From NCBI GenBank assembly GCA_964016885.1, contig OZ024744.1, forward strand, positions 116,126,001-116,190,000: a stretch of DNA of 64,000 nt, written 5' to 3'. Each line of letters starts with the position of its first letter. Within the stretch, counting starts at the first letter, position 1. The translations under genes and the position numbers were made by a program. The stretch comes from Eledone cirrhosa. Lineage: Eukaryota. This document shows positions 19,001-64,000 of the stretch, piece by piece. The notes under the pieces are model-generated. The model made no database searches. It worked only from the letters and a program-made list of their open reading frames with translations, and was not told the DNA's origin.

Positions 19001-19130
19001 TCTCTCTCTCTCTATTATATATAATGTCTCTCATATCTTGTCTCTCTCTCTATATATACAATGTCTCTCATATCTTGTCTCTCTCTCTCTATATATATAA
19101 TGTCTCTCATATCTTGTCTCTCTCTATATA
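11200..19130 (+). repeat. Tandem higher-order duplication, period ~3,976 bp (2 copies)
   Basis: Rare variants recur at offset 3976-3980: AAAATGCC..GTCCC 11215/15191, TTTATATATTTTATAA ~12503/16479, GTCTCGCTC ~12644/16620, TATTATAT 15033/19013. Confidence 0.88.
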
Positions 19131-29100: not shown

Positions 29101-29650
29101 TCTATTTATATAATGTCTCTCATATCTTGTCTCTCTCTCTCTATATATAATGTCTCTCATATCTTGTCTCTCTCTCTATATATATATAATGTCTCTCATA
29201 TCTTGTCTCTCTCTCTATATATACAATGTCTCTCATATCTTGTCACTCTCTCTGTATATATATAATGTCTCTCATATCTTGTCTCTCTCTCTATATATAT
29301 ATAATGTCTCTCATATCTTGTCCCTCTCTCTCTATAAATAATGTCTCTCATATCTTGTCCCTCTCTCTCTATATATATAATGTCTCTCATATCTTGTCTC
29401 TCTCCCTCTATATATAATGTCTCTCATATCTTGTCTCTCTCTCTATATATATAATGTCTCTCATATCTTGTCCCTCTCTCTCTATATATAATGTCTCTCA
29501 TATCTTGTCTCTCTCTCTATATATATAATGTCTCTCATATCTTGTCTCTCTCTCTCTATATATATAATGTCTCTCATATCTTGTCCGTCTCTCTCTATAA
29601 ATAATGTCTCTCATATCTTGCCTCTCTCTCTCTCTATATATACAATGTCT
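26200..29650 (+). repeat. Distinct sub-domain with ~750-bp and ~2,025-bp periodicities
   Basis: Private variants CGCTATATATGT followed by TATAATAATG near 26624, 27377 and 28649. ORF pairs 26364/27115/28389 and 26712/27465/28737. Confidence 0.75.
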
Positions 29651-29799
29651 CTCATATCTTGTCTCTCTCTCTCTATATATATATAATGTCTCTCGTATCT
29701 TGTCTCTCTCTCTATATATATATATAATGTCTCTCATAGCCTGTCTCTCTCTCTCTATATATATAATGTATCTCATATCTTGTCTCTCTCTCTATATAT

Positions 29800-37750: not shown

Positions 37751-38749
37751 GTCTCTCATATCTTGTCTCTCTCTCTATATATATATAATGTCTTTCATAT
37801 CTTGTCTCTCTCTCTATATATATAATGTCTCTCATATCTTATCTCTCTCTCTATATATATATAAAGTCTCTCATATCTTGTCTCTCTCTCTATATATAAT
37901 GTCTCTCATATCTTGTGTCTCTCTCTCTCTATATATTTAATGTCTCTCATATATTGTCTCTCTCTCTATATATATAATGTCTCTCAAATCTTGTCTCTCT
38001 CTCTCTCTATATATAATGTCTCTCATGTCTTGTCTCTCTCTCTATATATATATAATGTCTCTCATATTTTGTCTCTCTCTCTATATATATAATGTCTCTC
38101 ATATCTTGTCTCTCTCTCTATATATATAATGTCTCTCATATCTTGTCTCTCTCTATATATATAATGTCTCTCATATCTTGTCTCTCTCTCTATATATATA
38201 ATGTCTCTCATATCTTGTCTCTCTCTCTCTATATATATAATGTCTCTCATATCTTGTCTCTCTGTCTCTCTCTATATATAATGTCTCTCATATCTTGTCT
38301 CTCTCTCTCTATATATATATAAAGTCTCTCATATCTTGTCTCTCTCTCTATATACAATGTCTCTCATATCTTGTCTCTCTCTCTCTCTATATATATATAA
38401 TGTCTCTCATATCTTGTCTCTCTCTCTATATATATATAATGTCTCTCATATCTTGTCCCTCTCTCTCTATAAATAATGTTTCTCATATCTTGTCCCTCTC
38501 TCTCTATATATATATAATGTCTCTCATATCTTGTCTCTCTCTCTCTATATATATAATGTCTCTCATATCTTGTCTCTCTCTCTATATATATACAATGTCT
38601 CTCATATCTTGTCTCTTTCTCTATATATATATAATGTCTCTCATATCTTGTCTCTCTCTCTATATATATATAATGTCTCTCATATCTTGTCTCTCTCTCT
38701 ATATATATAATGTCTCTCATATCTTATCTCTCTCTCTATATATATATAA

Positions 38750-41700: not shown

Positions 41701-44700
41701 CTCTATATATATATAATGTCTCTCATATCTTGTCTCTCTCTCTCTATATATAATGTCTCTCATATCTTGTCTCTCTCTCTATATATATAATGTCTCTCAT
41801 ATCTTGTCTCTCTCTCTATATATATATATATATGTCTCTCATATCTTGTCTCTCTCTCTATATATATAATGTCTCTCATATCTTGTCTCTCTCTCTATAT
41901 ATAATGTCTCTCATATCTTGTCTCTCTCTCTATATATATAATGTCTCTCATATCTTGTCTCTCTCTCTCTATATATATATAATGTCTCTCATATCTTGTC
42001 TCTCTCTCTATATATAATGTCTATAATATCTTGTCTCTCTCTCTATATATATAATGTCTCTCATATCTTGTCTCTCTCTCTCTATATATATAATGTCACT
42101 CATATCTTGTCTCTCTCTCTATATATATAATGTCTCTCATATCTTGTTCTCTCTCTCTCTATATATATATATATGTCTCTCATATCTTGTCTCTCTCTCT
42201 CTATATATAATGTCTCTCATATCTTGTCTCTCTCTCTATATATATATATATAATGTCTCTCATATCTTGTCTCTCTCTCTCTCTATATATATAATGTCTC
42301 TCATATCTTGTCTCTCTCTCTATTTATATAATGTCTCTCATATCTTGTCTCTCTCTCTATATATATATAATGTCTCTCATATCTTGTCTCTCTCTCTCTA
42401 TATATATAATGTCTCTCATATCTTGTCTCTCTCTCTCTATATATATAATGTCTCTCATATCTTGTCTCTCTCTCTATATATATATAATGTCTCTCATATC
42501 TTGTCTCTCTCTCTATATATATAATGTCTCTCATATCTTGTCTCTCTCTCTCTATATATATAATGTCTCTCATATCTTGTCTCTCTCTCTCTCTATATAT
42601 AAATGTCTCTCATATCTTGTCTCTCTCTCTATATATATATAATGTCTCTCATATCTTGTCTCTCTCTCTATATATATAATGTCTCTCATATCTTATCTCT
42701 CTCTCTATATATATAATGTCTCTCATATCTTGTCTCTCTCTCTCTATATATATATAATGTCTCTCATATCTTGTCTCTCTCTCTTTATATATATAATGTC
42801 TCTCATATCTTGTCTCTCTCTCTATATATATATATAATGTCTCTCATATCTTGTCTCTCTCTCTATATATATAATGTCTCTCATATCTTGTCTCTCTCTC
42901 TCTATATATATATAATGTCTCTCATATCTTGTCTCTCTCTCTATATATATAATGTCTCTCATATCTTGTCTCTCTCTCTCTCTATATATAATGTCACTCA
43001 TATCTTGTCTCTCTCTCTATATATATAATGTCTCTCATATCTTGTTTCTCTCTCTATATATATATAATGTCTCTCATATCTTGTCTCTCTCTATATATAT
43101 AATGTCTCTCATATCTTGTCTCTCTCTCTCTATATATATATATAATGTCTCTCATGTCTTGTCTCTCTCTCTATATATATATATAATGTCTCTCATATCT
43201 TGTCTCTCTCTCTATTTATATAATGTCTCACATATCTTGTCTCTCTCTCTATATATATAATGTCTCTCATATCTTGTCTCTGTCTCTCTATATATATAAT
43301 GTCTCTCATATCTTGTCTCTCTCTATATATATAATGTCTCTCATATCTTGTCCTTCTCTCTCTATATATATAATGTCTCTCATATCTTGTCTCTCTCTCT
43401 CTATATATAATGTCTCTCATATCTTGTCTCTCTCTCTCTATATATATAATGTCTCTCATATCTTGTCTCTCTCTCTATATATATATAATGTCACTCATAT
43501 CTTGTCTCTCTCTCTATATATATATAATGTCTCTCATATCTTGTCTCTCTCTCTATATATATATAATGTCTCTCATATCTTGTCTCTCTCTATATATATA
43601 TAATGTCTCTCATATCTTGTCTCTCTCTCTCTATATATAATGTCTCTCATATCTTGTCTCTCTCTCTATTTATATAATGTCTCTCATATCTTGTCTCTCT
43701 CTCTATATATATATATATAATGTCTCTCATATCTTGTCTCTCTCTCTATATATATAATGTCTCTCATATCATGTCTCTCTCTCTATATATAATGTCTCTC
43801 ATATCTTGTCTCTCTCTCTATATATATAATGTCTCTCATATCTTGTCTCTCTCTCTATATATATATATAATGTCTCTCATATCTTGTCTCTCTCTCTATA
43901 TATAATGTCTATAATATCTTGTCTCTCTCTCTATATATATAATGTCTCTCATATCTTGTCTCTCTCTCTCTATATATATAATGTCACTCATATCTTGTCT
44001 CTCTCTCTATATATATAATATCTCTCATATCTTGTTTCTCTCTCTCTCTATATATATATATAATGTCTCTCATATCTTGTCTCTCTCTCTCTATATATAA
44101 TGTCTCTCATATCTTGTCTCTCTCTCTCTATATATATATATAATGTCTCTCATATCTTGTCTCTCTCTCTCTCTATATATATAATGTCTCTCATATCTTG
44201 TCTCTCTCTCTATTTATATAATGTCTCTCATATCTTGTCTCTCTCTCTCTATATATATAATGTCTCTCATATCTTGTCTCTCTCTCTCTCTATATATAAT
44301 GTCTCTCATATCTTGTCTCTCTCTCTATATATATATAATGTCTCTCATATCTTGTCTCTCTCTCTATATATATAATGTCTCTCATATCTTGTCTCTCTCT
44401 CTCTATATATATAATGTCTCTCATATCTTGTCTCTCTCTCTCTCTATATATATAATGTCTCTCATATCTTGTCTCTCTCTCTATATATATATAATGTCTC
44501 TCATATCTTGTCTCTCTCTCTATATATATAATGTCTCTCATATCTTATCTCTCTCTCTATATATATAATGTCTCTCATATCTTGTCTCTCTCTCTCTATA
44601 TATATATAATGTCTCTCATATCTTGTCTCTCTCTCTATATGTATATAATGTCTCTCATGTCTTGTCCCTCTCTCTCTCTATATATATAATGTCTCTCATA

Positions 44701-47700
44701 TCTTATCTCTCTCTCTCTATATATATATAATGTCTCTCATATCTTGTCTCTGTCTCTCTCTATATATATAATGTCTCTCATATCTTGTCTCTCTCTCTAT
44801 ATGTATATAATGAGAACTCATATCTTGTCTCTCTCTCTCTCTATATATAATGTCTCTCATATCTTGTCTCTCTCTCTATATATATATAATGTCTCTCATA
44901 TCTTGTCTCTCTCTCTCTATATATATAATGTCTCTCATATCTTATCTCTCTCTCTATATATATATAATGTCTCTCATATCTTGTCTCTCTCTCTCTCTCT
45001 ATATATAATGTCTCTCATATCTTGTCTCTCTCTCTATATGTATATAATGTCTCTCATATCTTGTCCCTCTCTCTCTGTATATAATGTCTCTCATATCTTG
45101 TCTCTCTCTCTCTATATATATATAATGTCACTCATATCTTGTCTCTCTCTCTATATATGTAATGTGTCTCATGACTTGTCTCTCTCTCTATATATATAAT
45201 GTCTCTCATATCTTGTCTCTCTCTCTATATATATATAATGTCTCTCATATCTTGTCTCTCTCTCTCTATATATATAATGTCTCTCATATCTTGTCCCTCT
45301 CTCTCTATATATATAATGTCTCTCATATCTTGTCTCTCTCTCTATATATATAATGTCTTTCATATCTTGTCTCTCTCTCTCTATATATATAATGTCACTC
45401 ATATCTTGTCTCTCTCTCTATATATATATAATGTCTCTCATATCTTGTCTCTCTCTCTCTCTATATATATAATGTCTCTCATATCTTGTCTCTCTCTCTA
45501 TATATATAATGTCTCTCATATCTTGTCTCTCTCTCTCTATATATAATGTCTCTCATATCTTGTCTCTCTCTCTATTTATATAATGTCTCTCATATCTTGT
45601 CTCTCTCTCTCTCTATATATATATATAATGTCTCTCATATCTTGTCTCTCTCTCTATATATATAATGTCTCTCATATCATGTCTCTCTCTCTATATATAT
45701 AATGTCTCTCATATCTTGTCTCTCTCTCTTATATATATAATGTCTCTCATATCTTGTCTCTCTCTCTATATATATATATAATGTCTCTCATATCTTGTCT
45801 CTCTCTCTATATATATAATGTCTCTCATATCTTGTCTCTCTCTCTATATATATAATGTCTCTCATATCTTGTCTCTCTCTCTATATATATATATAATGTC
45901 TCTCATATCTTGTCTCTCTCTCTATATATATAATGTCTCTCATATCTTGTCTCTCTCTCTCTATATATATATAATGACACTCATATCTTGTCTCTCTCTC
46001 TATATATATAATGTCTCTCATATCTTGTTTCTCTCTCTCTATATATATAATGTCTCTCATATCTTGTCTCTCTCTCTCTATATATAATGTCTCTCATATC
46101 TTGTCTCTCTCTCTCTATATATATATAATGTCTCTCATGTCTTGTCTCTCTCTCTATATATATATATAATGTCTCTCATATCTTGTCTCTCTCTCTATTT
46201 ATATAATGTCTCTCATATCTTGTCTCTCTCTCTATATATATAATGTCTCTCATATCTTGTCTCTCTCTCTCTCTATATATAATGTCTCTCATATCTTGTC
46301 TCTCTCTATATATATAATGTCTCTCATATCTTGTCCTTCTCTCTCTATATATATAATGTCTCTCATATCTTGTCTCTCTCTCTCTATATATAATGTCTCT
46401 CATATGTTGTCTCTCTCTCTATATATATATAATGTCTCTCATATCTTGTCTCTCTCTCTCTATATATATAATGTCACTCATATCTTGTCTCTCTCTATAT
46501 ATATATATAATGTCTCTCATATCTTGTCTCTCTCTCTATATATATATAATGTCTCTCATATCTTGTCTCTCTCTATATATATATAATGTCTCTCATATCT
46601 TGTCTCTCTCTCTCTATATATAATGTCTCTCATATCTTGTCTCTCTCTCTATATATATATAATGTCTCTCATATCTTGTCTCTCTCTATATATATATAAT
46701 GTCTCTCATATCTTGTCTCTCTCTCTCTATATATAATGTCTCTCATATCTTGTCTCTCTCTCTATTTATATAATGTCTCTCATATCTTGTCTCTCTCTCT
46801 ATATATATATATATAATGTCTCTCATATCTTGTCTCTCTCTCTATATATATAATGTCTCTCATATCATGTCTCTCTCTCTATATATAATGTCTCTCATAT
46901 CTTGTGTCTCTCTCTATATATATAATATCTCTCATATCTTGTCTCTCTCTCTCTATATATATATAATGTCTCTCATATCTTGTCTCTCTCTCTATATATA
47001 ATGTCTATAATATCTTGTCTCTCTCTCTATATATATAATGTCTCTCATATCTTGTCTCTCTCTCTATATATATATAATGTCACTCATATCTTGTCTCTCT
47101 CTCTATATATATAATGTCTCTCATATCTTGTTTCTCTCTCTCTCTATATATATATATAATGTCTCTCATATCTTGTCTCTCTCTCTATATATATAATGTC
47201 TCTCATATCTTGTCTCTCTCTATATATATATATATATAATGTCTCTCATATCTTGTCTCTCTCTCTCTCTCTATATATAATGTCTCTCATATCTTGTCTC
47301 TCTCTCTATTTATATAATGTCTCTCATATCTTGTCTCTCTCTCTCTATATATATAATGTCTCTCATATCTTGTCTCTCTCTCTATATATATATAATGTCT
47401 CTCATATCTTGTCTCTCTCTCTATATATATATAATGTCTCTCATATCTTGTCTCTCTCTCTATATATATATAATGTCTCTCATATCTTGTCTCTCTCTCT
47501 ATATATATAATGTCTCTCATATCTTGTCTCTCTCTCTCTATTTATATAATGTCTCTCATATCTTGTCTCTCTCTATATATATAATGTCTCTCATATCTTG
47601 TCCTTCTCTCTCTCTATATATAATGTCTCTCATATCTTGTCTCTCTCTCTCTATATATAATGTCTCTCATATCTTGTCTCTCTCTCTCTATATATATAAT

Positions 47701-50700
47701 GTCTCTCATATCTTGTCTCTCTCTCTCTATATATATAATGTCACTCATATCTTGTCTCTCTCTATATATATATATAATGTCTCTCATATCTTGTCTCTCT
47801 CTCTATATACATATAATGTCTCTCATATCTTGTCTCTCTCTATATATATATAATGTCTCTCATATCTTGTCTCTCTCTCTCTATATATAATGTCTCTCAT
47901 ATCTTGTCTCTCTCTCTATTTATATAATGTCTCTCATATCGTGTCTCTCTCTCTATATATAATGTCTGTCTCTCATATCTTGTGTCTCTCTCTCTCTATA
48001 TATATATAATGTCTCTCATATCTTGTCTCTCTCTCTATATATATAATGTCTCTCATATCTTGTCTCTCTCTCTCTATATATATAATGTCTCTCATATCTT
48101 GTCTCTCTCTCTATATATATAATGTCTCTCATATCTTGTATCTCTCTCTATATATATAATGTCTCACATATCTTGTCTCTCTCTATATATATATAATGTC
48201 TCTCATATCTTGTCTCTCTCTATATATATAATGTCTCTCATATCTTGTCTCTCTCTCTATATATATAATGTCTCTCATATCTTGTCTCTCTCTCTCTATA
48301 TATATAATGTCTCTCATATCTTGTCTCTCTGTCTCTCTCTATATATAATGTCTCTCATATCTTGTCTCTCTCTCTATATATATATAAAGTCTCTCATATC
48401 TTGTCTCTCTCTATATATACAATGTCTCTCATATCTTGTCTCTCTCTCTATATATATATATAATGTCTCTCATATCTTGTCTCTCTCTCTATATATATAT
48501 AATGTCTCTCATATCTTGTCTCTCTCTCTATATATATAATGTCTCTCATATCTTATCTCTCTCTCTCTCTATATATAATGTCTCTCATATCTTGTCTCTC
48601 TCTCTATATATATATATAATGTCTCTCATATCTTGTCTCTCTCTCTATATGTATATAATGTCTCTCATATCTTGTCCCTCTCTCTCTCTCTATATATAAT
48701 GTCTCTCATATCTTATCTCTCTCTCTCTCTATATATATAATGTCTCTCATATCTTGTCTCTGTCTCTCTCTATATATATAATGTCTCTCATATCTTGTCT
48801 CTCTCTCTATATATATAATGTCTCTCATATCTTGTCTCTCTCTCTATATGTATATAATGAGAACTCATATCTTGTCTCTCTCTCTCTATATATATAATGT
48901 CTCTCATATCTTGTCTCTCTCTCTATATATATATAATGTCTCTCATATCTTGTCTCTCTCTCTATATATATATAATGTCTCTCATATCTTATCTCTCTCT
49001 CTATATATATAATGTCTCTCATATCTTGTCTCTCTCTCTCTATATATATATAATGTCTCTCATATCTTGTCTCTCTCTCTATATGTATATAATGTCTCTC
49101 ATATCTTGTCCCTCTCTCTCTGTATATAATGTCTCTCATATCTTGTCTCTCTCTCTATATATATAATGTCTCTCATGTATTGTCTCTCTCTCTCTATATA
49201 TATAATGTCTCTCATATCTTGTCTCTCTCTCTATATATATATATAATGTCACTCATATCTTGTCTCTCTCTCTATATATGTAATGTGTCTCATGACTTGT
49301 CTCTCTCTCTATATATATAATGTCTCTCATATCTTGTCTCTCTCTCTATATATATATAATGTCTCTCATATCTTGTCTCTCTCTCTCTATATATATAATG
49401 TCTCTCAAATCTTGTCCCTCTCTCTCTATATATATAATGTCTCTCATATATTGTCTCTCTCTCTCTATATATAATGTCTTTCATATCTTGTCTCTCTCTC
49501 TATATATATATAATGTCACTCATATCTTGTCTCTCTCTCTATATATATATAATGTCTCTCATATCTTGTCTCTCTCTCTCTATATATATAATGTCTCTCA
49601 TATCTTGTCTCTCTCTCTATATATATAATGTCTCTCATATCTTGTCTCTCTCTCTCTATATATAATGTCTCTCATATCTTGTCTCTCTCTCTATTTATAT
49701 AATGTCTCTCATATCTTGTCTCTCTCTCTCTATATATATATATAATGTCTCTCATATCTTGTCTCTCTCTCTATATATATAATGTCTCTCATATCATGTC
49801 TCTCTCTCTATATATATAATGTCTCTCATATCTTGTCTCTCTCTTTATATATATAATGTCTCTCATATCTTGTCTCTCTCTCTCTATATATATATATAAT
49901 GTCTCTCATATCTTGTCTCTCTCTCTATATATATAATGTCTCTCATATCTTGTCTCCATCTCTATATATATATATAATCTCTCTCATATCTTGTCTCTCT
50001 CTCTATATATATAATGTCTCTCATATCATGTCTCTCTCTCTATATATATAATGTCTCTCATATCTTGTCTCTCTCTTTATATATATAATGTCTCTCATAT
50101 CTTGTCTCTCTCTCTATATATATATATAATGTCTCTCATATCTTGTCTCTCTCTCTATATATATAATGTCTCTCATATCTTGTCTCTCTCTCTATATATA
50201 TATATAATGTCTCTCATATCTTGTCTCTCTCTCTATATATATAATGCCTCTCATATCTTGTCTCTCTCTCTCTCTATATATAATGTCACTCATATCTTGT
50301 CTCTCTCTCTATATATATAATGTCTCTCATATCTTGTTTCTCTCTCTATATATATATAATGTCTCTCATATCTTGTCTCTCTCTCTATATATATAATGTC
50401 TCTCATATCTTGTCTCTCTCTCTCTATATATATATATAATGTCTCTCATGTCTTGTCTCTCTCTCTATATATATATATAATGTCTCTCATATCTTGTCTC
50501 TCTCTCTATTTATATAATGTCTCTCATATCTTGTCTCTCTCTCTATATATATAATGTCTCTCATATCTTGTCTCTGTCTCTCTATATATATAATGTCTCT
50601 CATATCTTGTCTCTCTCTATATATATAATGTCTCTCATATCTTGTCCTTCTCTCTCTATATATATAATGTCTCTCATATCTTGTCTCTCTCTCTCTATAT

Positions 50701-53700
50701 ATAATGTCTCTCATATCTTGTCTCTCTCTCTATATATATATAATGTCTCTCATATCTTGTCTCTCTCTCTATATATATATAATGTCTCTCATATCTTGTC
50801 TCTCTCTCTATATATATATAATGTCTCTCATATCTTGTCTCTCTCTATATATATATAATGTCTCTCATATCTTGTCTCTCTCTCTCTATATATAATGTCT
50901 CTCATATCTTGTCTCTCTCTCTATTTATATAATGTCTCTCATATCTTGTCTCTCTCTCTCTATATATATATATAATGTCTCTCATATCTTGTCTCTCTCT
51001 CTATATATATAATGTCTCTCATATCATGTCTCTCTCTCTATATATAATGTCTCTCATATCTTGTCTCTCTCTCTATATATATAATGTCTCTCATATCTTG
51101 TCTCTCTCTCTCTATATATATATAATGTCTCTCATATCTTGTCTCTCTCTCTATATATAATGTCTATAATATCTTGTCTCTCTCTCTATATATATAATGT
51201 CTCTCATATCTTGTCTCTCTCTCTCTATATATATAATGTCACTCATATCTTGTCTCTCTCTCTATATATATAATGTCTCTCATATCTTGTTTCTCTCTCT
51301 CTCTCTATATATATATAATGTCTCTCATATCTTGTCTCTCTCTCTCTATATATAATGTCTCTCATATCTTGTCTCTCTCTCTATATATATATATATAATG
51401 TCTCTCATATCTTGTCTCTCTCTCTCTCTATATATATAATGTCTCTCATATCTTGTCTCTCTCTCTATTTATATAATGTCTCTCATATCTTGTCTCTCTC
51501 TCTATATATATATAATGTCTCTCATATCTTGTCTCTCTCTCTCTATATATATAATGTCTCTCATATCTTGTCTCTCTCTCTCTCTATATATAATGTCTCT
51601 CATATCTTGTCTCTCTCTCTATATATATATAATGTCTCTCATATCTTGTCTCTCTCTCTATATATATAATGTCTCTCATATCTTGTCTCTCTCTCTCTAT
51701 ATATATAATGTCTCTCATATCTTGTCTCTCTCTCTCTCTATATATAAAATGTCTCTCATATCTTGTCTCTCTCTCTATATATATATAATGTCTCTCATAT
51801 CTTGTCTCTCTCTCTATATATATAATGTCTCTCATATCTTATCTCTCTCTCTATATATATAATGTCTCTCATATCTTGTCTCTCTCTCTCTATATATATA
51901 TAATGTCTCTCATATCTTGTCTCTCTCTCTTTATATATATAATGTCTCTCATATCTTGTCTCTCTCTCTATATATATATATAATGTCTCTCATATCTTGT
52001 CTCTCTCTCTATATATATAATGTCTCTCATATCTTGTCTCTCTCTCTATATATATATATAATGTCTCTCATATCTTGTCTCTCTCTCTATATATATAATG
52101 TCTCTCATATCTTGTCTCTCTCTCTCTATATATAATGTCACTCATATCTTGTCTCTCTCTCTATATATATAATGTCTCTCATATCTTGTTCTCTCTCTCT
52201 ATATATATAATGTCTCTCATATCTTGTCTCTCTCTATATATAATGTCTCTCATATCTTGTCTCTCTCTCTCTATATATATATAAATGTCTCTCATGTCTT
52301 GTCTCTCTCTCTATATATATATATAATGTCTCTCATATCTTGTCTCTCTCTCTATTTATATAATGTCTCTCATATCTTGTCTCTCTCTCTATATATATAA
52401 TGTCTCTCATATCTTGTCTCTGTCTCTCTATATATATAATGTCTCTCATATCTTGTCTCTCTCTATATATATAATGTCTCTCATATCTTGTCCTTCTCTC
52501 TCTATATATATAATGTCTCTCATATCTTGTCTCTCTCTCTCTATATATAATGTCTCTCATATCTTGTCTCTCTCTCTATATATATATAATGTCTCTCATA
52601 TCTTGTCTCTCTCTCTCTATATATATAATGTCACTCATATCTTGTCTCTCTCTCTATATATATATAATGTCTCTCATATCTTGTCTCTCTCTCTATATAT
52701 ATATAATGTCTCTCATATCTTGTCTCTCTCTATATATATATAATGTCTCTCATATCTTGTCTCTCTCTCTCTATATATAATGTCTCTCATATCTTGTCTC
52801 TCTCTCTATTTATATAATGTCTCTCATATCTTGTCTCTCTCTCTATATATATATATAATGTCTCTCATATCTTGTCTCTCTCTCTATATATATAATGTCT
52901 CTCATATCATGTCTCTCTCTCTATATATAATGTCTCTCATATCTTGTCTCTCTCTCTATATATATAATGTCTCTCATATCTTGTCTCTCTCTCTATATAT
53001 ATATATAATGTCTCTCATATCTTGTCTCTCTCTCTATATATAATGTCTATAATATCTTGTCTCTCTCTCTATATATATAATGTCTCTCATATCTTGTCTC
53101 TCTCTCTCTATATATATAATGTCACTCATATCTTGTCTCTCTCTCTATATATATAATATCTCTCATATCTTGTTTCTCTCTCTCTCTATATATATATATA
53201 ATGTCTCTCATATCTTGTCTCTCTCTCTCTATATATAATGTCTCTCATATCTTGTCTCTCTCTCTATATATATATATATAATGTCTCTCATATCTTGTCT
53301 CTCTCTCTCTCTATATATATAATGTCTCTCATATCTTGTCTCTCTCTCTATTTATATAATGTCTCTCATATCTTGTCTCTCTCTCTATATATATATAATG
53401 TCTCTCATATCTTGTCTCTCTCTCTCTATATATATAATGTCTCTCATATCTTGTCTCTCTCTCTCTCTATATATAATGTCTCTCATATCTTGTCTCTCTC
53501 TCTATATATATATAATGTCTCTCATATCTTGTCTCTCTCTCTATATATATAATGTCTCTCATATCTTGTCTCTCTCTCTCTATATATATAATGTCTCTCA
53601 TATCTTGTCTCTCTCTCTCTATATATATATAATGTCTCTCATATCTTGTCTCTCTCTCTATATATATATAATGTCTCTCATATCTTGTCTCTCTCTCTAT

Positions 53701-56700
53701 ATATATAATGTGTCTCATATCTTATCTCTCTCTCTATATATATAATGTCTCTCATATCTTGTCTCTCTCTCTCTATATATATATAATGTCTCTCATAACT
53801 TGTCTCTCTCTCTATATGTATATAATGTCTCTCATATCTTGTCCCTCTCTCTCTCTATATATATAATGTCTCTCATATCTTATCTCTCTCTCTCTATATA
53901 TATATAATGTCTCTCATATCTTGTCTCTGTCTCTCTCTATATATATAATGTCTCTCATATCTTGTCTCTCTCTCTATATGTATATAATGAGAACTCATAT
54001 CTTGTCTCTCTCTCTCTATATATATAATGTCTCTCATATCTTGTCTCTCTCTCTATATATATATAATGTCTCTCATATCTTGTCTCTCTCTCTCTATATA
54101 TATAATGTCTCTCATATCTTATCTCTCTCTCTATATATATAATGTCTCTCATATCTTGTCTCTCTCTCTCTCTATATATATAATGTCTCTCATATCTTGT
54201 CTCTCTCTCTATATGTATATAATGTCTCTCATATCTTGTCCCTCTCTCTCTGTATATAATGTCTCTCATATCTTGTCTCTCTCTCTCTATATATATATAA
54301 TGTCACTCATATCTTGTCTCTCTCTCTATATATGTAATGTGTCTCATGACTTGTCTCTCTCTCTATATATATAATGTCTCTCATATCTTGTCTCTCTCTC
54401 TATATATATATAATGTCTCTCATATCTTGTCTCTCTCTCTCTATATATATAATGTCTCTCATATCTTGTCCCTCTCTCTCTATATATATAATGTCTCTCA
54501 TATCTTGTCTCTCTCTCTATATATATAATGTCTTTCATATCTTGTCTCTCTCTCTCTATATATATAATGTCACTCATATCTTGTCTCTCTCTCTATATAT
54601 ATATAATGTCTCTCATATCTTGTCTCTCTCTCTCTATATATATATAATGTCTCTCATATCTTGTCTCTCTCTCTATATATATAATGTCTCTCATATCTTG
54701 TCTCTCTCTCTCTATATATAATGTCTCTCATATCTTGTCTCTCTCTCTATTTATATAATGTCTCTCATATCTTGTCTCTCTCTCTCTCTATATATATATA
54801 TAATGTCTCTCATATCTTGTCTCTCTCTCTATATATATAATGTCTCTCATATCATGTCTCTCTCTCTATATATATAATGTCTCTCATATCTTGTCTCTCT
54901 CTTTATATATATAATGTCTCTCATATCTTGTCTCTCTCTCTATATATATATATAATGTCTCTCATATCTTGTCTCTCTCTCTATATATATAATGTCTCTC
55001 ATATCTTGTCTCTCTCTCTATATATATAATGTCTCTCATATCTTGTCTCTCTCTCTATATATATATATAATGTCTCTCATATCTTGTCTCTCTCTCTATA
55101 TATATAATGTCTCTCATATCTTGTCTCTCTCTCTATATATATATAATGACACTCATATCTTGTCTCTCTCTCTATATATATAATGTCTCTCATATCTTGT
55201 TTCTCTCTCTCTATATATATAATGTCTCTCATATCTTGTCTCTCTCTCTCTATATATAATGTCTCTCATATCTTGTCTCTCTCTCTCTATATATATATAA
55301 TGTCTCTCATGTCTTGTCTCTCTCTCTATATATATATATAATGTCTCTCATATCTTGTCTCTCTCTCTATTTATATAATGTCTCTCATATCTTGTCTCTC
55401 TCTCTATATATATAATGTCTCTCATATCTTGTCTCTCTCTCTCTCTATATATAATGTCTCTCATATCTTGTCTCTCTCTATATATATAATGTCTCTCATA
55501 TCTTGTCCTTCTCTCTCTATATATATAATGTCTCTCATATCTTGTCTCTCTCTCTCTATATATAATGTCTCTCATATGTTGTCTCTCTCTCTCTATATAT
55601 ATAATGTCTCTCATATCTTGTCTCTCTCTCTCTATATATATAATGTCACTCATATCTTGTCTCTCTCTATATATATATATAATGTCTCTCATATCTTGTC
55701 TCTCTCTCTATATATATATAATGTCTCTCATATCTTGTCTCTCTCTATATATATATAATGTCTCTCATATCTTGTCTCTCTCTCTCTATATATAATGTCT
55801 CTCATATCTTGTCTCTCTCTCTATTTATATAATGTCTCTCATATCTTGTCTCTCTCTCTATATATATATATATAATGTCTCTCATATCTTGTCTCTCTCT
55901 CTATATATATAATGTCTCTCATATCATGTCTCTCTCTCTATATATAATGTCTCTCATATCTTGTCTCTCTCTCTATATATATAATGTCTCTCATATCTTG
56001 TCTCTCTCTCTCTATATATATATAATGTCTCTCATATCTTGTCTCTCTCTATATATATAATGTCTATAATATCTTGTCTCTCTCTCTATATATATAATGT
56101 CTCTCATATCTTGTCTCTCTCTCTCTATATATATAATGTCACTCATATCTTGTCTCTCTCTCTATATATATAATGTCTCTCATATCTTGTTTCTCTCTCT
56201 CTCTCTCTATATATATAATGTCTCTCATATCTTGTCTCTCTCTCTCTATATATAATGTCTCTCATATCTTGTCTCTCTCTCTATATATATATATATAATG
56301 TCTCTCATATCTTGTCTCTCTCTCTCTCTATATATATAATGTCTCTCATATCTTGTCTCTCTCTCTATTTATATAATGTCTCTCATATCTTGTCTCTCTC
56401 TCTCTATATATATAATGTCTCTCATATCTTGTCTCTCTCTCTATATATATATAATGTCTCTCATATCTTGTCTCTCTCTCTATATATATATAATGTCTCT
56501 CATATCTTGTCTCTCTCTCTATATATATATAATGTCTCTCATATCTTGTCTCTCTCTCTATATATATAATGTCTCTCATATCTTGTCTCTCTCTCTCTAT
56601 ATATATAATGTCTCTCATATCTTGTCTCTCTCTATATATATAATGTCTCTCATATCTTGTCCTTCTCTCTCTATATATATAATGTCTCTCATATCTTGTC

Positions 56701-57000
56701 TCTCTCTCTCTATATATAATGTCTCTCATATCTTGTCTCTCTCTCTATATATATATAATGTCTCTCATATCTTGTCTCTCTCTCTCTATATATATAATGT
56801 CACTCATATCTTGTCTCTCTCTATATATATATATAATGTCTCTCATATCTTGTCTCTCTCTCTCTATATATATATAATGTCTCTCATATCTTGTCTCTCT
56901 CTATATATATATAATGTCTCTCATATCTTGTCTCTCTCTCTCTATATATAATGTCTCTCATATCTTGTCTCTCTCTCTATTTATATAATGTCTCTCATAT
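38750..57000 (+). repeat. Tandem higher-order duplication, period ~9.18 kb (2 copies), with internal sub-repeats
   Basis: ATCGTG..AATGTCTGTCTC ~38760/47938; TGAGAACTC 39676/48858 and 44811/53988; GTCTCCATC ~40772/49952. Confidence 0.88.
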
Positions 57001-59358
57001 CTTGTCTCTCTCTCTCTCTATATATATATAATGTCTCTCATATCTTGTCTCTCTCTCTCTATATATATAATGTCTCTCATATCATGTCTCTCTCTCTATA
57101 TATAATGTCTCTCATATCTTGTCTCTCTCTCTATATATATAATGTCTCTCATATCTTGTCTCTCTCTCTCTATATATATATAATGTCTCTCATATCTTGT
57201 CTCTCTCTCTATATATAATGTCTATAATATCTTGTCTCTCTCTCTATATATATAATGTCTCTCATATCTTGTCTCTCTCTCTCTATATATATAATGTCAC
57301 TCATATCTTGTCTCTCTCTCTATATATATAATGTCTCTCATATCTTGTTTCTCTCTCTCTCTCTATATATATATAATGTCTCTCATATCTTGTCTCTCTC
57401 TCTATATATATAATGTCTCTCATATCTTGTCTCTCTCTCTATATATATATATATAATGTCTCTCATATCTTGTCTCTCTCTCTCTCTATATATATAATGT
57501 CTCTCATATCTTGTCTCTCTCTCTATTTATATAATGTCTCTCATATCTTGTCTCTCTCTCTATATATATATAATGTCTCTCATATCTTGTCTCTCTCTCT
57601 ATATATATATAATGTCTCTCATATCTTGTCTCTCTCTCTATATATATATAATGTCTCTCATATCTTGTCTCTCTCTCTATATATATATAATGTCTCTCAT
57701 ATCTTGTCTCTCTCTCTATATATATAATGTCTCTCATATCTTGTCTCTCTCTCTATATATATATAATGTCTCTCATATCTTGTCTCTCTCTCTCTCTATA
57801 TATAATGTCTCTCATATCTTGTTTCTCTCTCTCTATATATATATATAATGTCTCTCATATCTTGTCTCTCTCTCTATATATATAATGTCTCTCATATCTT
57901 GTCTCTCTCTATATATATATATAATGTCTCTCATATCTTGTCTCTCTCTCTATATATATATAATGTCTCTCATATCTTGTCTCTCTCTCTCTATATATAT
58001 ATAATGTCTCTCATATCTTGTATCTCTCTCTCTATATATATATAATGTCTCTCATGTCTTGTCTCTCTCTCTATATATATATAATGTCTCCCATATCTTG
58101 TCTCTCTCTCTATATATATATAATGTCTCTCATATCTTGTCTCTCTCTCTCTATATATAATGTCTCTCATATCTTGTCTCTCGCTCTATATATATAATGT
58201 CTCTCATATCTTGTCTCTCTCTCTATATATATAATGTCTCTCATTTCTTGTCTCTCTCTCTCTATATATATAATGTCTCTCATATCTTGTCTCTCTCTCT
58301 CTCTATATATATATATATAATGTCTCTCATATCTTGTCTCTCTCTCTCTATATATATATAATGTCTCTCATATCTTATCTCTCTCTCTATATATATAATG
58401 TCTCTCATATCTTGTCTCTCTCTCTATATATATATATAATGTCTCTCATATCTTGTCTCTCTCTCTATATGTATATAATGTCTCTCATATCTTGTCCCTC
58501 TCTCTCTGTATATAATGTCTCTCATATCTTGTCTCTCTCTCTATATATATAATGTCTCTCATGTCTTGTCTCTCTCTCTATATATATATAACGTCTCTCA
58601 TATCTTGTCTCTCTCTCTCTATATATATATAATGTCACTCATATCTTGTCTCTCTCTCTATATATGTAATGTCTCTCATGACTTGTCTCTCTCTCTATAT
58701 ATATAATGTCTCTCATATCTTGTCTCTCTCTCTCTATATATATAATGTCTCTCATATCTTGTCTCTCTCTCTCTATATATATAATGTCTCTCATATCTTG
58801 TCTCTCTCTCTCTATATATAATGTCTTTCATATCTTGTCTCTCTCTCTATATATATATAATGTCACTCATATCTTGTCTCTCTCTATATATATATATAAT
58901 GTCTCTCATATCTTGTCTCTCTCTCTATATATATATAATGTCTCTCATATCTTGTCTCTCTCTCTATATATATAATGTCTCTCATATCTTGTCTCTCTCT
59001 CTATATATATAATGTCTCTCATATCTTGTCTCTCTCTCTATTTATATAATGTCTCTCATATCTTGTCTCTCTCTCTCTCTATATATATATATAATGTCTC
59101 TCATATCTTGTCTCTCTCTATATATATATAATGTCTCTCATATCATGTCTCTCTCTCTATATATATATAATGTCTCTCATATCTTGTCTCTCTCTTTATA
59201 TATATAATGTCTCTCATATCTTGTCTCACTCTCTATATATATATATAATGTCTCTCATATCTTGTCTCTCTCTCTATATATATAATGTCTCTCATATCTT
59301 GTCTCTCTCTCTCTATATATATATAATGTCTCTCATATCTTGTCTCTCTCTCTATATC

Positions 59359-59413
59359 TGTTAGAACACGAAAAGTGTGAAACAACAGAATGTTCACTTT
59401 TCGTGTTCTAACA
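59359..59413. repeat. 5'-terminal hairpin: 19-bp perfect inverted repeat with 17-nt loop
   Basis: TGTTAGAACACGAAAAGTG (59359-59377) is the exact reverse complement of CACTTTTCGTGTTCTAACA (59395-59413). Confidence 0.95.
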
Positions 59414-59769
59414 TATATGCCTAGCTTCTTTAAAAATTTTTCGGGGATAGCCGTGGTGGTGGTGATCGTATGTCATTGGCTAATTTTCAACCAATCAGAG
59501 TACCTCTCTCTATATCTCTTCCACTGTTACTTACGCCTGTTTCTCTCTATCTGTTCCGTCTCTATATATATCTCTTACTCTTTCGCTTTGCACTCCTCCC
59601 CTTCAATACCATCTCTCCCCCTCTCTATATATTTGTTACTCTATTGCTGCACGCTCCTCTCCTTCAATATATCAATTACACACGCTTTACACTCCTTTAT
59701 CCCCAGCGCCCCTATATATACACCCCCACCTCTCCCGCATCTATATTTTAATGTACCGTTGCACCGTGA

Positions 59770-59870
59770 ATATATGTGTCTATATATATATACATATATA
59801 TTGTATATACACATTCATGTATGTGTATACACACTCATGTATGTATATACACTGGTTTTATGTGTGTATT
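59770..59870. repeat. Degenerate (TA)/(TG)/(CA) microsatellite tract
   Basis: Alternating purine-pyrimidine low-complexity sequence (TATATGTGTCTATATATATATACATATATA...GTATGTATACAC). Confidence 0.7.
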
Positions 59871-60245
59871 GTAAATTTGTACTGTTAAAACACGAAACTA
59901 ACATTCGATCGACACTTTGATTACCTGTACAGGCAATAGTTATTAGAATGCTGTTGAAGTGTGTATATATTTTTGGGGGACATCCTGTATATACACACAT
60001 TATATATAATACAATAAACAGATAAATACACACATATATATATGAGCTTATTTAATTATAAATATTGTGAATTTTTAACTCAGTTCAATTATATATATAA
60101 ATGGTTTCTACAGGACTAGAACTGTTTCATTCGAAAGAAATCATCATAATATTGAGAGGGGGGACTAGATAAAATATTTCAAATCAAATGTGTATAAGTT
60201 ATAAGTTAAAATGTATAAATAGAGACGATAGTGGAGGTATATCTG

Positions 60246-60322
60246 TTTAGTGGAACAGTAGACGATAGAATTAAATACAGACGATAATCTCCCTTTAATG
60301 AAACAGCAGACGATAGAATTAA
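60246..60322 (+). repeat. Short direct repeat, 2 x 29 bp, period 48
   Basis: TTTAGTGGAACAGTAGACGATAGAATTAA (60246-60274) vs TTTAATGAAACAGCAGACGATAGAATTAA (60294-60322), 26/29 identical. Confidence 0.85.
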
Positions 60323-60350
60323 GGCAATTTAAATTTTAAGCATTTGCATT

Positions 60351-60403
60351 TTTGCCTTTCATCGTTACGGGGTCGATAAAATAAAGTACCAGTAATACAC
60401 TGT
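60351..60403 (+). mobile_element. SINE central-domain fragment
   Basis: TTTGCCTTTCATCGTTACGGGGTCGATAAAATAAAGTACCAGT resembles, from recall, the conserved core of abundant octopus tRNA-derived SINEs. 24 bp are identical to 61306-61329. Confidence 0.65.
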
Positions 60404-60762
60404 CACTAGACGACTTTCAAATTGAATTGTTGGTTCCATTTCTTTAGTATTTTCAATTGTAGTTATCTACTTAAAAAGCGTTACACGGTTAGAGACATAA
60501 TTCGTAAGTTATATCTTCCCTATTAAACCATTGCATTATTTCGCCTACAATAGAACAAAAATGAAATGTTCTTTAAAGAAACAGGAATATAACTTTATAA
60601 AAAAAAAAGTTGCATCCGCTTCTTTTATCATTGATAATTTTTTCGTTTTAATATTAATTGTTTTTTGTAGTTGTTTATATTAAAAATCTTACTGTAATAT
60701 TTACTTAAACGAAGGCAAACATCTAAACTTATAGATTAATCTTGAGCGAAGGACTAGATAAA

Positions 60763-60771
60763 TCTCTCTCC

Positions 60772-60806
<35 letters not shown>
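60763..60806 (+). repeat. Compound (TC)~12(TA)10 microsatellite inside the insert
   Basis: TCTCTCTCCCTCTCTCTCTCTCTC followed by (TA)10. Confidence 0.92.
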
Positions 60807-61184
60807 AACGAAGAATGATAAAATTTCAAGCAAAGAGTTTAATTAGGTATATTTTGTAATATTATTAACTAATTATTATAATTAACGCGCATATTTTGCT
60901 ATCCTCAAACACGTTTACACATGGCATGAAATATAACTAATCCGAGATGGCTAGGTTTCATCTTCTAACTGGATATACGAAATCCATTATGTCTTGACAA
61001 CAACATGAGGTAACATTATGTTATTCACAGACACACTTTGTACACTGTTCCATATCAGAATGTATTTCCTTCGTCACATTCACAAACAGTATTGAAAATA
61101 TGTTCTTCGGCAAATAAAAATGTTTTGTTCATAATATTTCAACTAGCGATTGCTCTACTCCACGCACGACCACCATAAATTAAT

Positions 61185-61375
61185 GACCAGCTCAACACAA
61201 GTATTGGTAGAGCGTCAGACACCATGCTTTGCAGTATTGTTATGGTCCTTTGCATTCTAAGTTCAAATCCTGCCGAGGTTAACTTCGACTTTCATACTTA
61301 CTAATTCGATAAAATAAAGTACCAGTAATGGACTGCCGTAATGGATTTGTGCCGAAAAATAGAAACACTATTAAT
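61185..61375 (+). mobile_element. Degenerate tRNA-derived SINE (ends approximate)
   Basis: tRNA-like head (AGCTCA...TTGGTAGAGCGTCAGAC), Pol III B-box GTTCAAATCC at 61261-61270, then core CTTTCAT..TCGATAAAATAAAGTACCAGT and a TTGTGCC..AGAAAC tail. Confidence 0.68.
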
Positions 61376-61923
61376 GTGCAATAAGAGCAAAATATAACGA
61401 CATTGCTCAATTATTTTATCTAATGTTGTAATAACACAAGGAAATGTTGTTTGTGTATTTTTTTTTATATTTGCTCATAGGCTTTTACAATTTCGCTCAG
61501 CCAACAACTATTAAAAAGTGAGTTGCTTAAGATAACAATTTAATCACAAATTGTTGCTATCTTTTAATACACTCCAACAAGTCATCAAATTATGTACAAT
61601 AAAAACAAATCTTATTAATTTGCTCAGGGAATATAAAGAAAATGTATATACACTGATAATTGCAATTGTATGTAAATATTTTGTTTTTGTATTGTATATT
61701 TTATGTTTTCTATTATGTATAATATATTGATTTAATATTGATTGTTTTTTGTAGTTGTTTATATTAAAAGTCTGAAAATATTTTTATACATCTTACACTA
61801 ATATTTATAAGATAATTTATAATAACAATTACATAATCTAATTACATTACAACGATAATTTATTATTAATATATATCCTGTTTAACTAGAGTTATTACAA
61901 GCGTTGCCTTAAAAAAATATTAA

Positions 61924-62880
61924 ACTAGACATGAAAAATGCGCAAGCTCAAAAGTGCCACAGAATGTTATAATAAACCTTCAAAAGTGTGAGACTAGAGT
62001 TGTTGCTAAAAAATATTGTAATCATTATATATCGTACATTCTGTGGCATCCTTTATAAAAATAGCTTAAACCAACGAAGCCTTTATTTTTACGCTATTTC
62101 ACTTAGTTAATTCTTAGAGTGTAACATATAAAAATAAATACATCTATGTTTAATGTAATAACAGCTATAAATAATTACGTAATATTATTATCATATACTC
62201 ATAGTAACAAAATAATTGTGTTGAAACTTAATATGATGCTTATATGAACGATCAAATCTATAATGATAATTTCTTAAATATACTAATAGTAAAATAATTT
62301 AGTTATCTATTGTTACATTTTCATAGAACTATAATATTAACAATCGTATTGCATTATCAAATTTTTATCACTACAAACTTTCATATTGGAATTACCTTAA
62401 GCCACTTATTATTACTTCGCTTTCGTACTTTTACAGCTGTAGATATTGCGCTGTATCTTATATCTAATATCAATATCTCGTGGTAATTTGCATGAAGTGT
62501 AAAATAGGTTTATTAATAACTTTAATATGAAATGTATTATACAGGGCTGCGGAGTCGGCCAAAAATTGACTGGCTCCAACTCAGGATCCGATACTCCATT
62601 ATTTCCTAAATTTCAGCTCCGCAGCTCTGTTATTATATTAATTAATTTATTTTATAGTTGTAAATGATATTTTTATATGTTACACTCTAAGAATTAACTA
62701 AGTGAAATAGCGTAAAAATAAAGGCTTCGTTGGTTTAAGCTATTTTTATAAAGGATGCCACAGAATGTACGATATATAATGATTACAATATTTTTTAGCA
62801 ACAACTCTAGTCCCACACTTTTGAAGGTTTATTATAACATTCTGTGGCACTTTTGAGCTTGCGCATTTTTCATGTCTAGT
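61924..62880. repeat. Long inverted repeat (foldback): 213-bp arms 61924-62136 and 62668-62880, 531-bp spacer
   Basis: Manual reverse-complement comparison gives 212/213 identity, with a single mismatch at 61991 (GTGTGAGAC vs GTGTGGGAC). Confidence 0.96.
62542..62629. mobile_element. 88-bp hAT-like MITE
   Basis: TIRs CAGGGCTGCGGAG / CTCCGCAGCTCTG (12/13 complementary), flanked by 8-bp near-duplications GTATTATA (62534-62541) and TTATTATA (62630-62637). CAG ends with an 8-bp TSD are typical of hAT elements. Confidence 0.75.
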
Positions 62881-64000
62881 ATATAATGTCTCTCATATCT
62901 TGTCTCTCTCTCTATATATATATAATGTCACTCATATCTTGTCTCTCTCTCTATATATATAATGTCTCTCATATCTTGTTTCTCTCTCTATATATATATA
63001 ATGTCTCTCATATCTTGTCTCTCTCTCTATATATATAATGTCTCTCATATCTTGTCTCTCTCTCTCTATATATATATATAATGTCTCTCATGTCTTGTCT
63101 CTCTCTCTCTATATATATATAATGTCTCTCATATCTTGTCTCTCTCTCTATTTATATAATGTCTCTCATATCTTGTCTCTCTCTCTATATATATAATGTC
63201 TCTCATATCTTGTCTCTCTCTCTCTATATATATAATGTCTCTCATATCTTGTCTCTCTCTCTATATATAATGTCTCTCATATCTTGTCCCTCTCTCTCTA
63301 TATATATAATGTCTCTCATATCTTGTCTCTCTCTCTCTATATATAATGTCTCTCATATCTTGTCTCTCTCTCTATATATATATAATGTCTCTCATATCTT
63401 GTCTCTCTCTCTCTATATATATAATGTCACTCATATCTTGTCTCTCTCTATATATATATATAATGTCTCTCATATCTTGTCTCTCTCTCTATATATATAT
63501 AATGTCTCTCATATCTTGTCTCTCTCTCTATATATATAATGTCTCTCATATCTTGTCTCTCTCTCTATTTATATAATGTCTCTCATATCTTGTCTCTCTC
63601 TCTATATATATATATATAATGTCTCTCATATCTTGTCTCTCTCTCTATATATATAATGTCTCTCATATCATGTCTCTCTCTCTATATATAATGACTCTCA
63701 TATCTTGTCTCTCTCTCTATATATATAATGTCTCTCATATCTTGTCTCTCTCTCTCTATATATATAATGTCTCTCATATCTTGTCTCTCTCTCTATATAT
63801 AATGTCTATAATATCTTGTCTCTCTCTCTATATATATAATGTCTCTCATATCTTGTCTCTCTCTCTATATATATATAATGTCACTCATATCTTGTCTCTC
63901 TCTCTATATATATAATGTCTCTCATATCTTGTTTCTCTCTCTCTATATATATATATATAATGTCTCTCATATCTTGTCTCTCTCTCTCTATATATAATGT
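62880..64000 (+). repeat. Continuation of the same satellite array after the insertion, open at the right edge
   Basis: Same monomer, orientation and right-domain variants (AATGTCACTC, TATTTATAT, ATATCATG, TGTCTATAAT). Confidence 0.99.

Follow-up and report, generated by a model that had tools for sequence, protein, structure and literature searches.

The window, by which we mean the whole stretch of 64,000 nucleotides that was analysed, consists of a satellite array that is interrupted once by an insert of different sequence. The features recognised in it are as follows.

1..59356, plus strand: satellite array with a monomer of 33–47 nt, made up of an 18-nt head and (TC)n(TA)n, in loose higher-order blocks
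59357..62879, plus strand: whole insert, 29% G+C, with 5'-TC and CTAG-3' ends, inserted at an A|T step of a (TA)5 tract
59359..59413, plus strand: 5' hairpin with a perfect 19-bp stem and a 17-nt loop, beginning 2 nt inside the end
59383..59394, plus strand: left half of what may be a short, asymmetric inverted pair (weak; 11/12 with 62836–62847)
59504..59870, plus strand: degenerate repeats of ~60 nt and a (TA)/(TG)-rich microsatellite, from repeat analysis
59882..59897, plus strand: further occurrence of the 5' terminal motif, in direct orientation (15/16), from sequence comparison
60351..60402, plus strand: fragment of a host repeat, presumably SINE-like (repeat family D5; depth 3e5–7e6 in three runs)
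61200..61342, plus strand: older and longer copy of the same repeat, from repeat analysis and run contigs
61806..61923, minus strand: tail that joins the left arm without a break in diverged, older relatives, from run contigs
61924..62136, minus strand: left (internal) arm of a 213-nt inverted repeat, holding a 13-bp inverted pair (61955–61967/62036–62048)
62137..62667, no strand: spacer of 531 nt separating the arms; a small inverted-repeat element of ~80 nt lies near 62545–62625
62668..62880, plus strand: right arm, comprising the terminal CTAG and the target T, with 1 mismatch to the left arm
62880..64000, plus strand: satellite resuming in register, from TRF and monomer parsing

Parsing of the satellite yielded 1,555 monomers, all of which were 33–79 nt long save the one bearing the insert, and the array spans found by TRF were 1–59357 and 62880–64000; both results confirm the initial annotation in regarding the insert as the sole break in the satellite. 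Its coordinates (59357–62879), its length of 3,523 nt and its A|TC...CTAG|T junctions, which in wider context read TA|TCTG...CTAG|TA, were also reproduced exactly. The best equivalents of the monomer at the site, located at 50206, 41026 and 42914, have 9, 8 and 7 of 24 neighbours identical, respectively, against a background of 1.0 ± 1.0. As had been claimed for monomers at about 50206, 41026 and 42915, all three are (TC)5(TA)5, the same as the joined flank, and this is in any case the most frequent monomer count in the array (277/1,555). Although the three equivalents bear out the reported match between higher-order blocks, the match is imperfect in monomer counts and variants: the first monomer to the right of the site is (TC)5(TA)6, compared with (TC)7(TA)4 in the 41026 and 42914 copies, and the CATGTC and CATG variants are missing from the 41026 and 42914 copies, respectively.

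The insertion point is an A|T step, and the empty monomers have the joined length in 3/3 cases, all of which concern one site inside (TA)n. Since both flanks of the insert read TA/TATA, a duplication of TA, TAT or TATA upon a shorter (TA)n tract would be compatible with their sequence taken by itself. The argument that nothing was duplicated comes from length: at the 14 positions (of 20 examined) for which the three empty copies give one and the same length, the copy with the insert matches it every time. Length differs in 11/78 pairwise comparisons of the core block and in 13/44 comparisons of a wider ±12 window. A target duplication, that of TA included, is therefore unlikely at this site; the earlier statement that nothing was duplicated or lost agrees with the lengths of the three empty monomers but is stronger than the flank sequence allows. 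Likewise, the insert is absent from the three paralogous blocks, as expected if it post-dates homogenisation of the array, but the order of the two events is not settled by age, because the blocks differ by 0.3–0.6% in their monomer heads and the element by 0.2–0.35% from its own family.

No remnant of a coding sequence was detected in the insert. At the curated cut-off, Pfam gave no match in the 17 frames scanned of the 32 that are at least 40 aa long; below the cut-off, 5 matches fell in 3 of the frames (again with 17/32 scanned). The 11 Rfam matches at E<=1 were all to microRNA models and far under the gathering score, and ARAGORN gave no match. The very abundant host repeat at 60351..60402 and 61200..61342 is one that we take to be SINE-like, and no published confirmation of it was found in a literature search.

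The two ends of the insert are of very different character. At the 5' end, a Helitron-type TC (59357–59358) is followed by the hairpin at 59359..59413, whose fold (z -8.6) was reached by 0/200 shuffles. At the 3' end of the window copy, a CTRR-type terminus is present in the form of CTAG (62876–62879), and the chance of finding both TC and CTRR, allowing for two placements and two orientations, is ~0.002. In the 50 nt that precede CTAG in the window copy, no Watson–Crick stem of at least 4 bp was found; the fold z of this end is +0.46, and the majority allele of older relatives has just a 4-bp stem, 17 nt upstream of CTAG. Instead of a short hairpin, the element closes with 213 nt that repeat 61924–62136 in inverted orientation, so that the terminal CTAG mirrors an internal CTAG of the left arm. 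The older relatives read straight through the internal CTAG to 61806, and for them it is no end; within this tail, at 61886–61910, lies a degenerate minus-strand end of hairpin-plus-CTAG type (the hairpin was read by eye). The initial annotation mentioned neither the 5' hairpin nor the terminal inverted repeat of 213 nt, and the literature search, which covered titles and the beginnings of abstracts of freely accessible papers, found no Helitron with a long terminal fold-back. The 11/12 inverted pair would connect the 5' hairpin with a position lying 32 nt short of the 3' end; its score was matched in 4.8% of the 562 control windows and in 4% of 2,000 shuffles, or by 16/3,000 shuffles when the motif was fixed beforehand from the arm's own repeat, which amounts to weak support. 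Read on the minus strand, the ends would be CTAG...CAGA, and these match no Helitron rule. Readings of the ends as Academ-, Ginger- or Kolobok-like were set aside upon inspection for want of a fitting target duplication.

Contigs from 4 of 15 listed sequencing runs, bearing four organism labels, were compared with the insert, and most of the 3.5-kb unit was found in all four. In three of the runs (X1, X3 and X4) the main contigs are 99.6–99.8% identical to the window copy (5/2,880, 4/1,409 and 4/1,139 letters differing, respectively), with depth level along the unit. The listed main pieces have depths of 12–28 in X1, 593–1,166 in X3 and 4,221–4,875 in X4, and diverged single pieces have depths of 13–15 in X3 and 25–31 in X4. 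Read depth, which is a rough proxy and not a copy number, suggests roughly 40–80 and 150–175 copies of the unit in two runs. The depth of the satellite flank is 108,646 in X4 and 35–84 in X3, which indicates that most X3 copies lie outside satellite of the window type and that the unit moves without it. One X3 contig (depth 812) ends 73 letters to the left of 59428, i.e. at 59355 by arithmetic on the contig table; this is two letters from the proposed TC, which would place the 5' boundary of the family within 2 nt of it, and in those copies TC is preceded by TA. Contigs of the arm have about twice the depth of the unit (41.4 vs. 20.4 in X1, where the contig starts exactly at 62668, and 108 vs. 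46 in X8), hence the family as such possesses the inverted repeat. Far more copies share the 3' ~100 nt than the 5' end, the summed depth in X4 being ~143,000 at 61955 and 62849 together vs. 3,262 at 59428. In X8 there was no cover at the 5' end and in 3/30 bins; the word fractions of the unit in X8 (0.25) and X9 (0.20) are not to be read as absence. Neither satellite junction is crossed by any of the listed contigs, none of them covers the unit from end to end, and no second flank was seen. When collections of metagenome, virus and prokaryote sequences were searched for exact matches to the end motifs, nothing was found except one chance match of 24 nt in a G+C-rich contig (L001), where the similarity ends with the motif.

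With canonical Helitrons (HLE1/Helitron1; Helibat/Helraiser derivatives), for which TC...CTRR ends and an A|T site are the rule (PMC11417382, PMC4778049), the insert shares the 5'-TC, CTAG-3', the A|T site and probably the lack of a duplication. It also resembles their non-autonomous forms in having no coding capacity, captured host pieces and a more widely shared right end, the last being a tendency reported for Helitrons (PMC11417382). However, this copy lacks a short hairpin 10–12 nt before CTAG, its CTAG lies within 213 nt that repeat an internal segment in inverted orientation, and its strong hairpin is the 5' one; for these reasons, classification as a canonical Helitron is not supported. 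What is supported, of the Helitron-type reading that had been put forward, is a mobile unit that is recent, non-coding and present in many copies, with TC/CTAG ends at A|T and probably no duplication.

The ends partly resemble those of the proto-Helentron or "HLE2-reverse" type, the set of a 5' stem-loop, no 3' hairpin and CTAG at A|T being present. The proto-Helentron of Phytophthora infestans (PMC4067079; PMC11417382) likewise has a 3' CTAG, an A|T site without duplication and a 5' stem-loop, and its short inverted pair of ~12 nt with one mismatch resembles the possible pair of the insert. It differs in beginning with TT rather than TC, in lacking the long 3' fold-back and in the left pair member, which lies 3.6 kb downstream rather than inside the 5' hairpin; the insert, moreover, has no transposase by which to place it. 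The survey did not find the proto-Helentron in its other 404 genomes (PMC11417382). The HLE2-reverse elements FoHeli3-5 of Fusarium oxysporum (PMC5148889) also have a 5' hairpin and no 3' hairpin, and the right member of their short asymmetric inverted pair lies 20–40 nt from the end (32 nt for the possible pair of the insert), whereas their ends are TGCCT...CTCCTGT and their pair is 13–16 bp, compared with an 11/12 pair weakly above chance here. Of the HLE2 group (Helitron2/Helentron/DINE-1) in general, the 5' hairpin or subterminal repeat with a nearby inverted partner is present at 59359–59413, and the weakly supported 11/12 pair may represent the short asymmetric inverted pair whose right member lies 20–60 nt from the 3' end, but in the window copy the 3' stem-loop after the right repeat is absent, as are T-run termini and a T|T or T-rich site. 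In the non-autonomous Helentrons DINE-1/HINE the inverted repeat begins 2–4 nt in from the 5' terminus and has its partner 3–22 nt away (17 in the insert), and a microsatellite and degenerate central repeats come next, as they do here; in contrast to them, the insert has neither a 3' copy of the 5' repeat 38–60 nt from the end nor a 3' stem-loop, and its site is A|T instead of T|T. The model of nested Helitrons in opposite orientation (PMC5148889, Fig. 8) would likewise leave an internal inverted Helitron end, although no 5' end of an inner copy was found in the insert and the identity stops after 213 nt.

Other explanations have to be weighed against these likenesses. The TA/TATA on both flanks could be the duplication made by a TA-targeting cut-and-paste element (Tc1/mariner, Mutator or similar) that entered a shorter (TA)n tract and whose terminal repeats have decayed. 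Such an element would also give the TA before TC that is common to X3 copies, the 5' end is loosely similar to the reverse complement of the 3' end, and Mutator-like elements targeting TA microsatellites are reported to exist (PMC4486113). This explanation is nevertheless unlikely, since it requires that the monomer before insertion was 2–4 nt shorter than all three paralogs, which was seen at 0/14 informative positions, and since, in spite of the great youth of the family, TCTG and CTAG at the outermost positions do not complement each other; complementary termini of the kind that define TIR transposons are absent. We consider it equally improbable that the insert is a composite in which the 957 nt at 61924–62880 are a separate long-inverted-repeat transposon of foldback or MITE type, ending another insert and bringing its own CTAG. 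The 213-nt arms with 1 mismatch, and the abundance of older relatives of arm, tail and spacer joined in the same order, are what this would predict; yet the arms have no flanking target duplication (contexts TTAA and ATAT), the spacer in X4 has the same depth (4,465) as the remainder of the unit, so that the module does not move alone there, and the older relatives run 118 nt past the left arm, which makes the right arm the truncated one.

Two further alternatives are very improbable. One old insertion or segmental copy could have multiplied without transposition, as a passenger of the satellite or in tandem, and the window copy does sit in the array while X4 combines abundant satellite with high unit depth. 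In X3, however, the unit has a depth of 600–1,170 with almost no satellite; the window has one copy per 1,555 monomers, compared with ~1/25 if all X4 copies were in the array (a ratio using a lower-bound satellite depth); and a head-to-tail joint was not found among the 15 best-supported joints (there are 361 further joints). A misassembly joining a real repeat to the satellite would agree with the lack of a contig across either junction among those listed, but beyond the insert the array continues exactly in phase with the higher-order block, the interruption coincides precisely with TC and CTAG, and the inner order of the unit is matched by contigs of other runs.

The reading that we favour, with a probability of about 0.7, is that the insert is a young, non-autonomous, composite Helitron-like element mobilised in trans. 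By this we infer that a partner transposase, a RepHel encoded elsewhere, would nick at the 5' TC and copy the element as single-stranded DNA into the A|T step of the (TA)5 tract. Read-through or nested insertion may have enlarged the element, and this would account both for the SINE fragments that it has captured and for the CTAG|T sites on the minus strand of its interior. The arms may have been copied from one another recently, because both carry the same minority alleles against the older relatives, and copying would stop at the CTAG with which the 213-bp fold-back ends; this fold-back may replace the missing hairpin as a pause for the helicase. In the Helraiser experiments, the 3' hairpin is the terminator and its loss lowers efficiency about tenfold, transposition proceeding at 8.8% of wild type with new ends taken (PMC4778049). 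Despite this role, a hairpin-less family here apparently stands at tens to >100 near-identical copies.

A non-autonomous Helitron within a satellite is ordinary, and the distinction of this one is the structure of its ends. If the fold-back does terminate transposition, it shows how Helitrons gain new ends and why finders based on end motifs miss such families. A more far-reaching proposal, which we regard as speculative, is that of an animal rolling-circle family with proto-Helentron-like ends and the 213-bp fold-back as terminator, amplifying in several related species and possibly passed between them; passage is suggested by the 99.6–99.8% likeness in runs whose satellite content differs several-hundred-fold. 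If the partner transposase belongs to the HLE2 clade, for whose RepHel DUF6570 is a marker, ends of proto-Helentron type would extend from an oomycete to animals. So young a family suggests that these genomes harbour an active RepHel, and it could serve as a dated marker for expansion of the satellite. The stretch 59542–59571 of the insert resembles a satellite monomer (2/300 shuffles), the match being mostly (TC)n(TA)n; derivation of the satellite from the element was set aside on account of this composition, and it remains a lead.

The whole window consists of a single satellite array of 1,555 monomers, each comprised of an 18-nt head followed by (TC)n(TA)n, and in all but one of these the monomer length is 33–79 nt. 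The exception contains a 3,523-nt insert with the junctions TA/TCTG...CTAG/TA, for which there is only one alternative duplication-free placement, offset by 1 base. The main parts of the insert are as follows (forward-strand coordinates).

59357–62879, the insert
61924–62136, left arm
62668–62880, right arm, in inverted orientation
61924–62880, 957-nt module (both arms and the spacer)

When the flanks of the insert are joined, they give a (TC)5(TA)5 monomer. The best three equivalents of this monomer, at 50206, 41026, and 42914, share 9, 8, and 7 of 24 neighbours with it, respectively (background 1.0 ± 1.0), and all three are empty (TC)5(TA)5 monomers. These are the sites that the initial annotation had put forward as matching empty monomers, and this claim is confirmed. 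It had also claimed that nothing was duplicated upon insertion. As both flanks are TA-rich, a duplication of TA, TAT, or TATA is also compatible with the letters. However, the insert-bearing copy has the length of the empty copies at all 14 positions (of 20) where the three empty copies agree, pairwise length differences among copies being 11/78 in the core and 13/44 in a wider window, and this agreement favours the absence of a target duplication, on the evidence of one site. A rare monomer variant recurring at 39635, 44770, 48817, and 53947 (spacings of 5,135, 4,047, and 5,130 nt) marks a higher-order repeat about 9.2 kb in length. Within the insert, 59542–59571 resembles a satellite monomer, a likeness matched by 2 of 300 dinucleotide shuffles, and the satellite and the repeats of the element could share an origin.

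The last 213 nt of the insert, with the target T included, are an inverted copy of the left arm with a single mismatch and 531 nt between the two, so that the CTAG at the terminus has a mirror counterpart inside the element. The hairpin at the 5′ end, beginning 2 nt inside, has a loop of 17 nt and a stem of 19 bp free of mismatches (z = −8.6; 0 of 200 shuffles), whereas no Watson–Crick stem of at least 4 bp was found in the 50 nt preceding the CTAG (fold z = +0.46). All three of these characteristics had been overlooked in the initial annotation. Within the 5′ hairpin, 12 nt pair in inverted orientation (11/12) with a stretch lying 32 nt from the 3′ end; among 562 control windows 4.8% score at least as high, and among 2,000 shuffles 4%. 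When the arm's own internal repeat of 13 bp was set in advance as the motif, 16 of 3,000 shuffles and 0 of 43 other windows gave a match of 9 letters. At most, these results suggest a short inverted pair linking the two ends. The 5′ terminal motif recurs as a direct copy 525 nt inside the element (59882–59897; 15/16), where it may mark an older left end. The insert yielded no tRNA, and neither Rfam families nor Pfam domains were detected in it at cut-off (17 of 32 frames in the Pfam scan).

The insert is wholly or partly present in 9 of the 15 sequencing runs listed, and seven of them (four organism labels, three studies) contain 60–86% of its words; the best-holding run may be the source sample, and in that case is not independent. 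Contigs from four runs (X1, X3, X4, and X8) were compared in detail. The main pieces listed differ from the window copy at 5/2,880 (X1), 4/1,409 (X3), and 4/1,139 (X4) letters, and their depth is level (12–28, 593–1,166, and 4,221–4,875, respectively); cover in X8 is patchy. Diverged single pieces have depths of 13–15 (n = 3, X3) and 25–31 (n = 2, X4). If these are single-copy, there would be roughly 40–80 copies of the unit in X3 and 150–175 in X4, depth not being the same as copy number. An X3 contig of depth 812, in which 73 letters remain to the end from both 59428 and 59430, spans by arithmetic 59355–59503, its right end being consistent with the 30-letter overlap of the following contig. 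As it begins at 59355, the family starts at most 2 letters from the TC and has the preceding TA in common. Arm contigs have about twice the unit depth (41.4 versus 20.4 in X1, where the contig starts at 62668, and 108 versus 46 in X8), which indicates that the inverted repeat belongs to the family. Depth of the satellite flank is 108,646 in X4, 35–84 in X3, 11 in X1, and 0 in X8; thus, the unit is abundant in X3 without this satellite. Relative to the element, satellite depth is about 24× in X4 and 0.04–0.09× in X3, the element being 99.6–99.7% alike in both, and this contrast reflects either very rapid satellite turnover or recent sharing of the element.

We consider it probable (about 0.72) that the insert is a non-autonomous, Helitron-like element of recent age, present in multiple copies, atypical in its ends, and mobilized by the rolling-circle transposase RepHel acting in trans. 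In the scheme adopted from PMC4778049, RepHel would nick at the 5′ TC, one strand would be displaced with copying ending at the CTAG, and insertion would follow at A/T without duplication. In a computed fold, the last 957 nt of the displaced strand can form a stem closing exactly at the CTAG, and this stem could stand in for the short hairpin as a pause signal. An end lacking the hairpin is possible, since the experimentally studied Helraiser minus its hairpin kept 8.8% activity and took new ends (PMC4778049). One arm would have originated from the other, and read-through or nesting would account for the captured pieces. A TA-targeting cut-and-paste element, with which the TA-rich flanks are compatible and the equal monomer lengths less so, is an unlikely explanation. 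Equally improbable is a separate foldback element located at the insert's end: the arms form such a structure, but spacer depth in X4 (4,465) is the same as that of the unit, and hence the module is not moving alone there. Passive amplification of the unit and misassembly are both very improbable. Among the pieces listed from the four runs, none bridges a satellite junction, spans the whole unit, or has a second flank.

The Helitron-type reading of the initial annotation therefore stands in part, although the 3′ hairpin of canonical Helitrons (HLE1) is absent: the insert is probably Helitron-like in its working but differs from HLE1 in this regard, and it differs from HLE2 (Helitron2/Helentron/DINE-1) in both the T/T site and the 3′ stem-loop, as these groups are defined in PMC11417382, PMC5148889, PMC4067079, and PMC13085455. 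It has a 5′ stem-loop, a CTAG end at A/T, and a weak candidate for a short inverted pair, and it lacks a 3′ hairpin; by this combination, with membership depending upon the transposase, it is nearest to proto-Helentron and FoHeli3–5, described from an oomycete (PMC4067079) and a fungus (PMC5148889), respectively. Our literature searches found no paper on a Helitron ending in a long fold-back, and as Repbase, Dfam, and subscription papers lay outside them, the family may already be catalogued.

The interior of the insert contains host repeats and other features.

60351–60402 and 61200–61342, fragments of a host repeat with depth up to 7 million in the runs
61235 and 61238, alleles within this repeat whose depth differs strongly between X3 and X4
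59915–60156, pieces of a high-copy host repeat (depth up to 6e5), one presumably ending in a Tc1/mariner-like terminal motif
60623–60703 and 61708–61807, an internal direct duplication, 85–95% alike
62214–62480, a diverged spacer family abundant in X3 and absent among the X4 matches listed
62545–62625, a small inverted-repeat element in the spacer (9-bp stem, about 80 nt, preceded by TA)

We take the first of these repeats to resemble an octopus tRNA-derived SINE, an identity that would imply an octopus host; published confirmation of it was not found in literature searches. If so, the published context is in keeping: the HELIANO supplement gives 55,718 HLE1 versus 5 HLE2 insertions for Octopus sinensis, and PMC13282606 gives 8 Helitron families with 178 recently active insertions for O. 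vulgaris.

Older relatives of the arm region in X3 cover 61806–62035 (26–33 differences), crossing the internal CTAG, and 62475–62722 (26 differences), crossing the spacer–arm junction. Over the two mirrored sites 61955 and 62849, depth adds up to about 143,000 in X4 and 37,000 in X3, and at 61878 it is 54,000 and 8,000. At 61955/62849, the majority of older copies carry the other allele, with which a stem of 4 bp forms 17 nt upstream of the CTAG. As the minority allele is present in both arms of the window element, one of them probably derives from the other. Lastly, 7 of the 10 CTAGs outside the right arm lie in an ACTAGA context, which is CTAG/T on the minus strand (60116–61997; post hoc), and these may represent stacked old Helitron ends.
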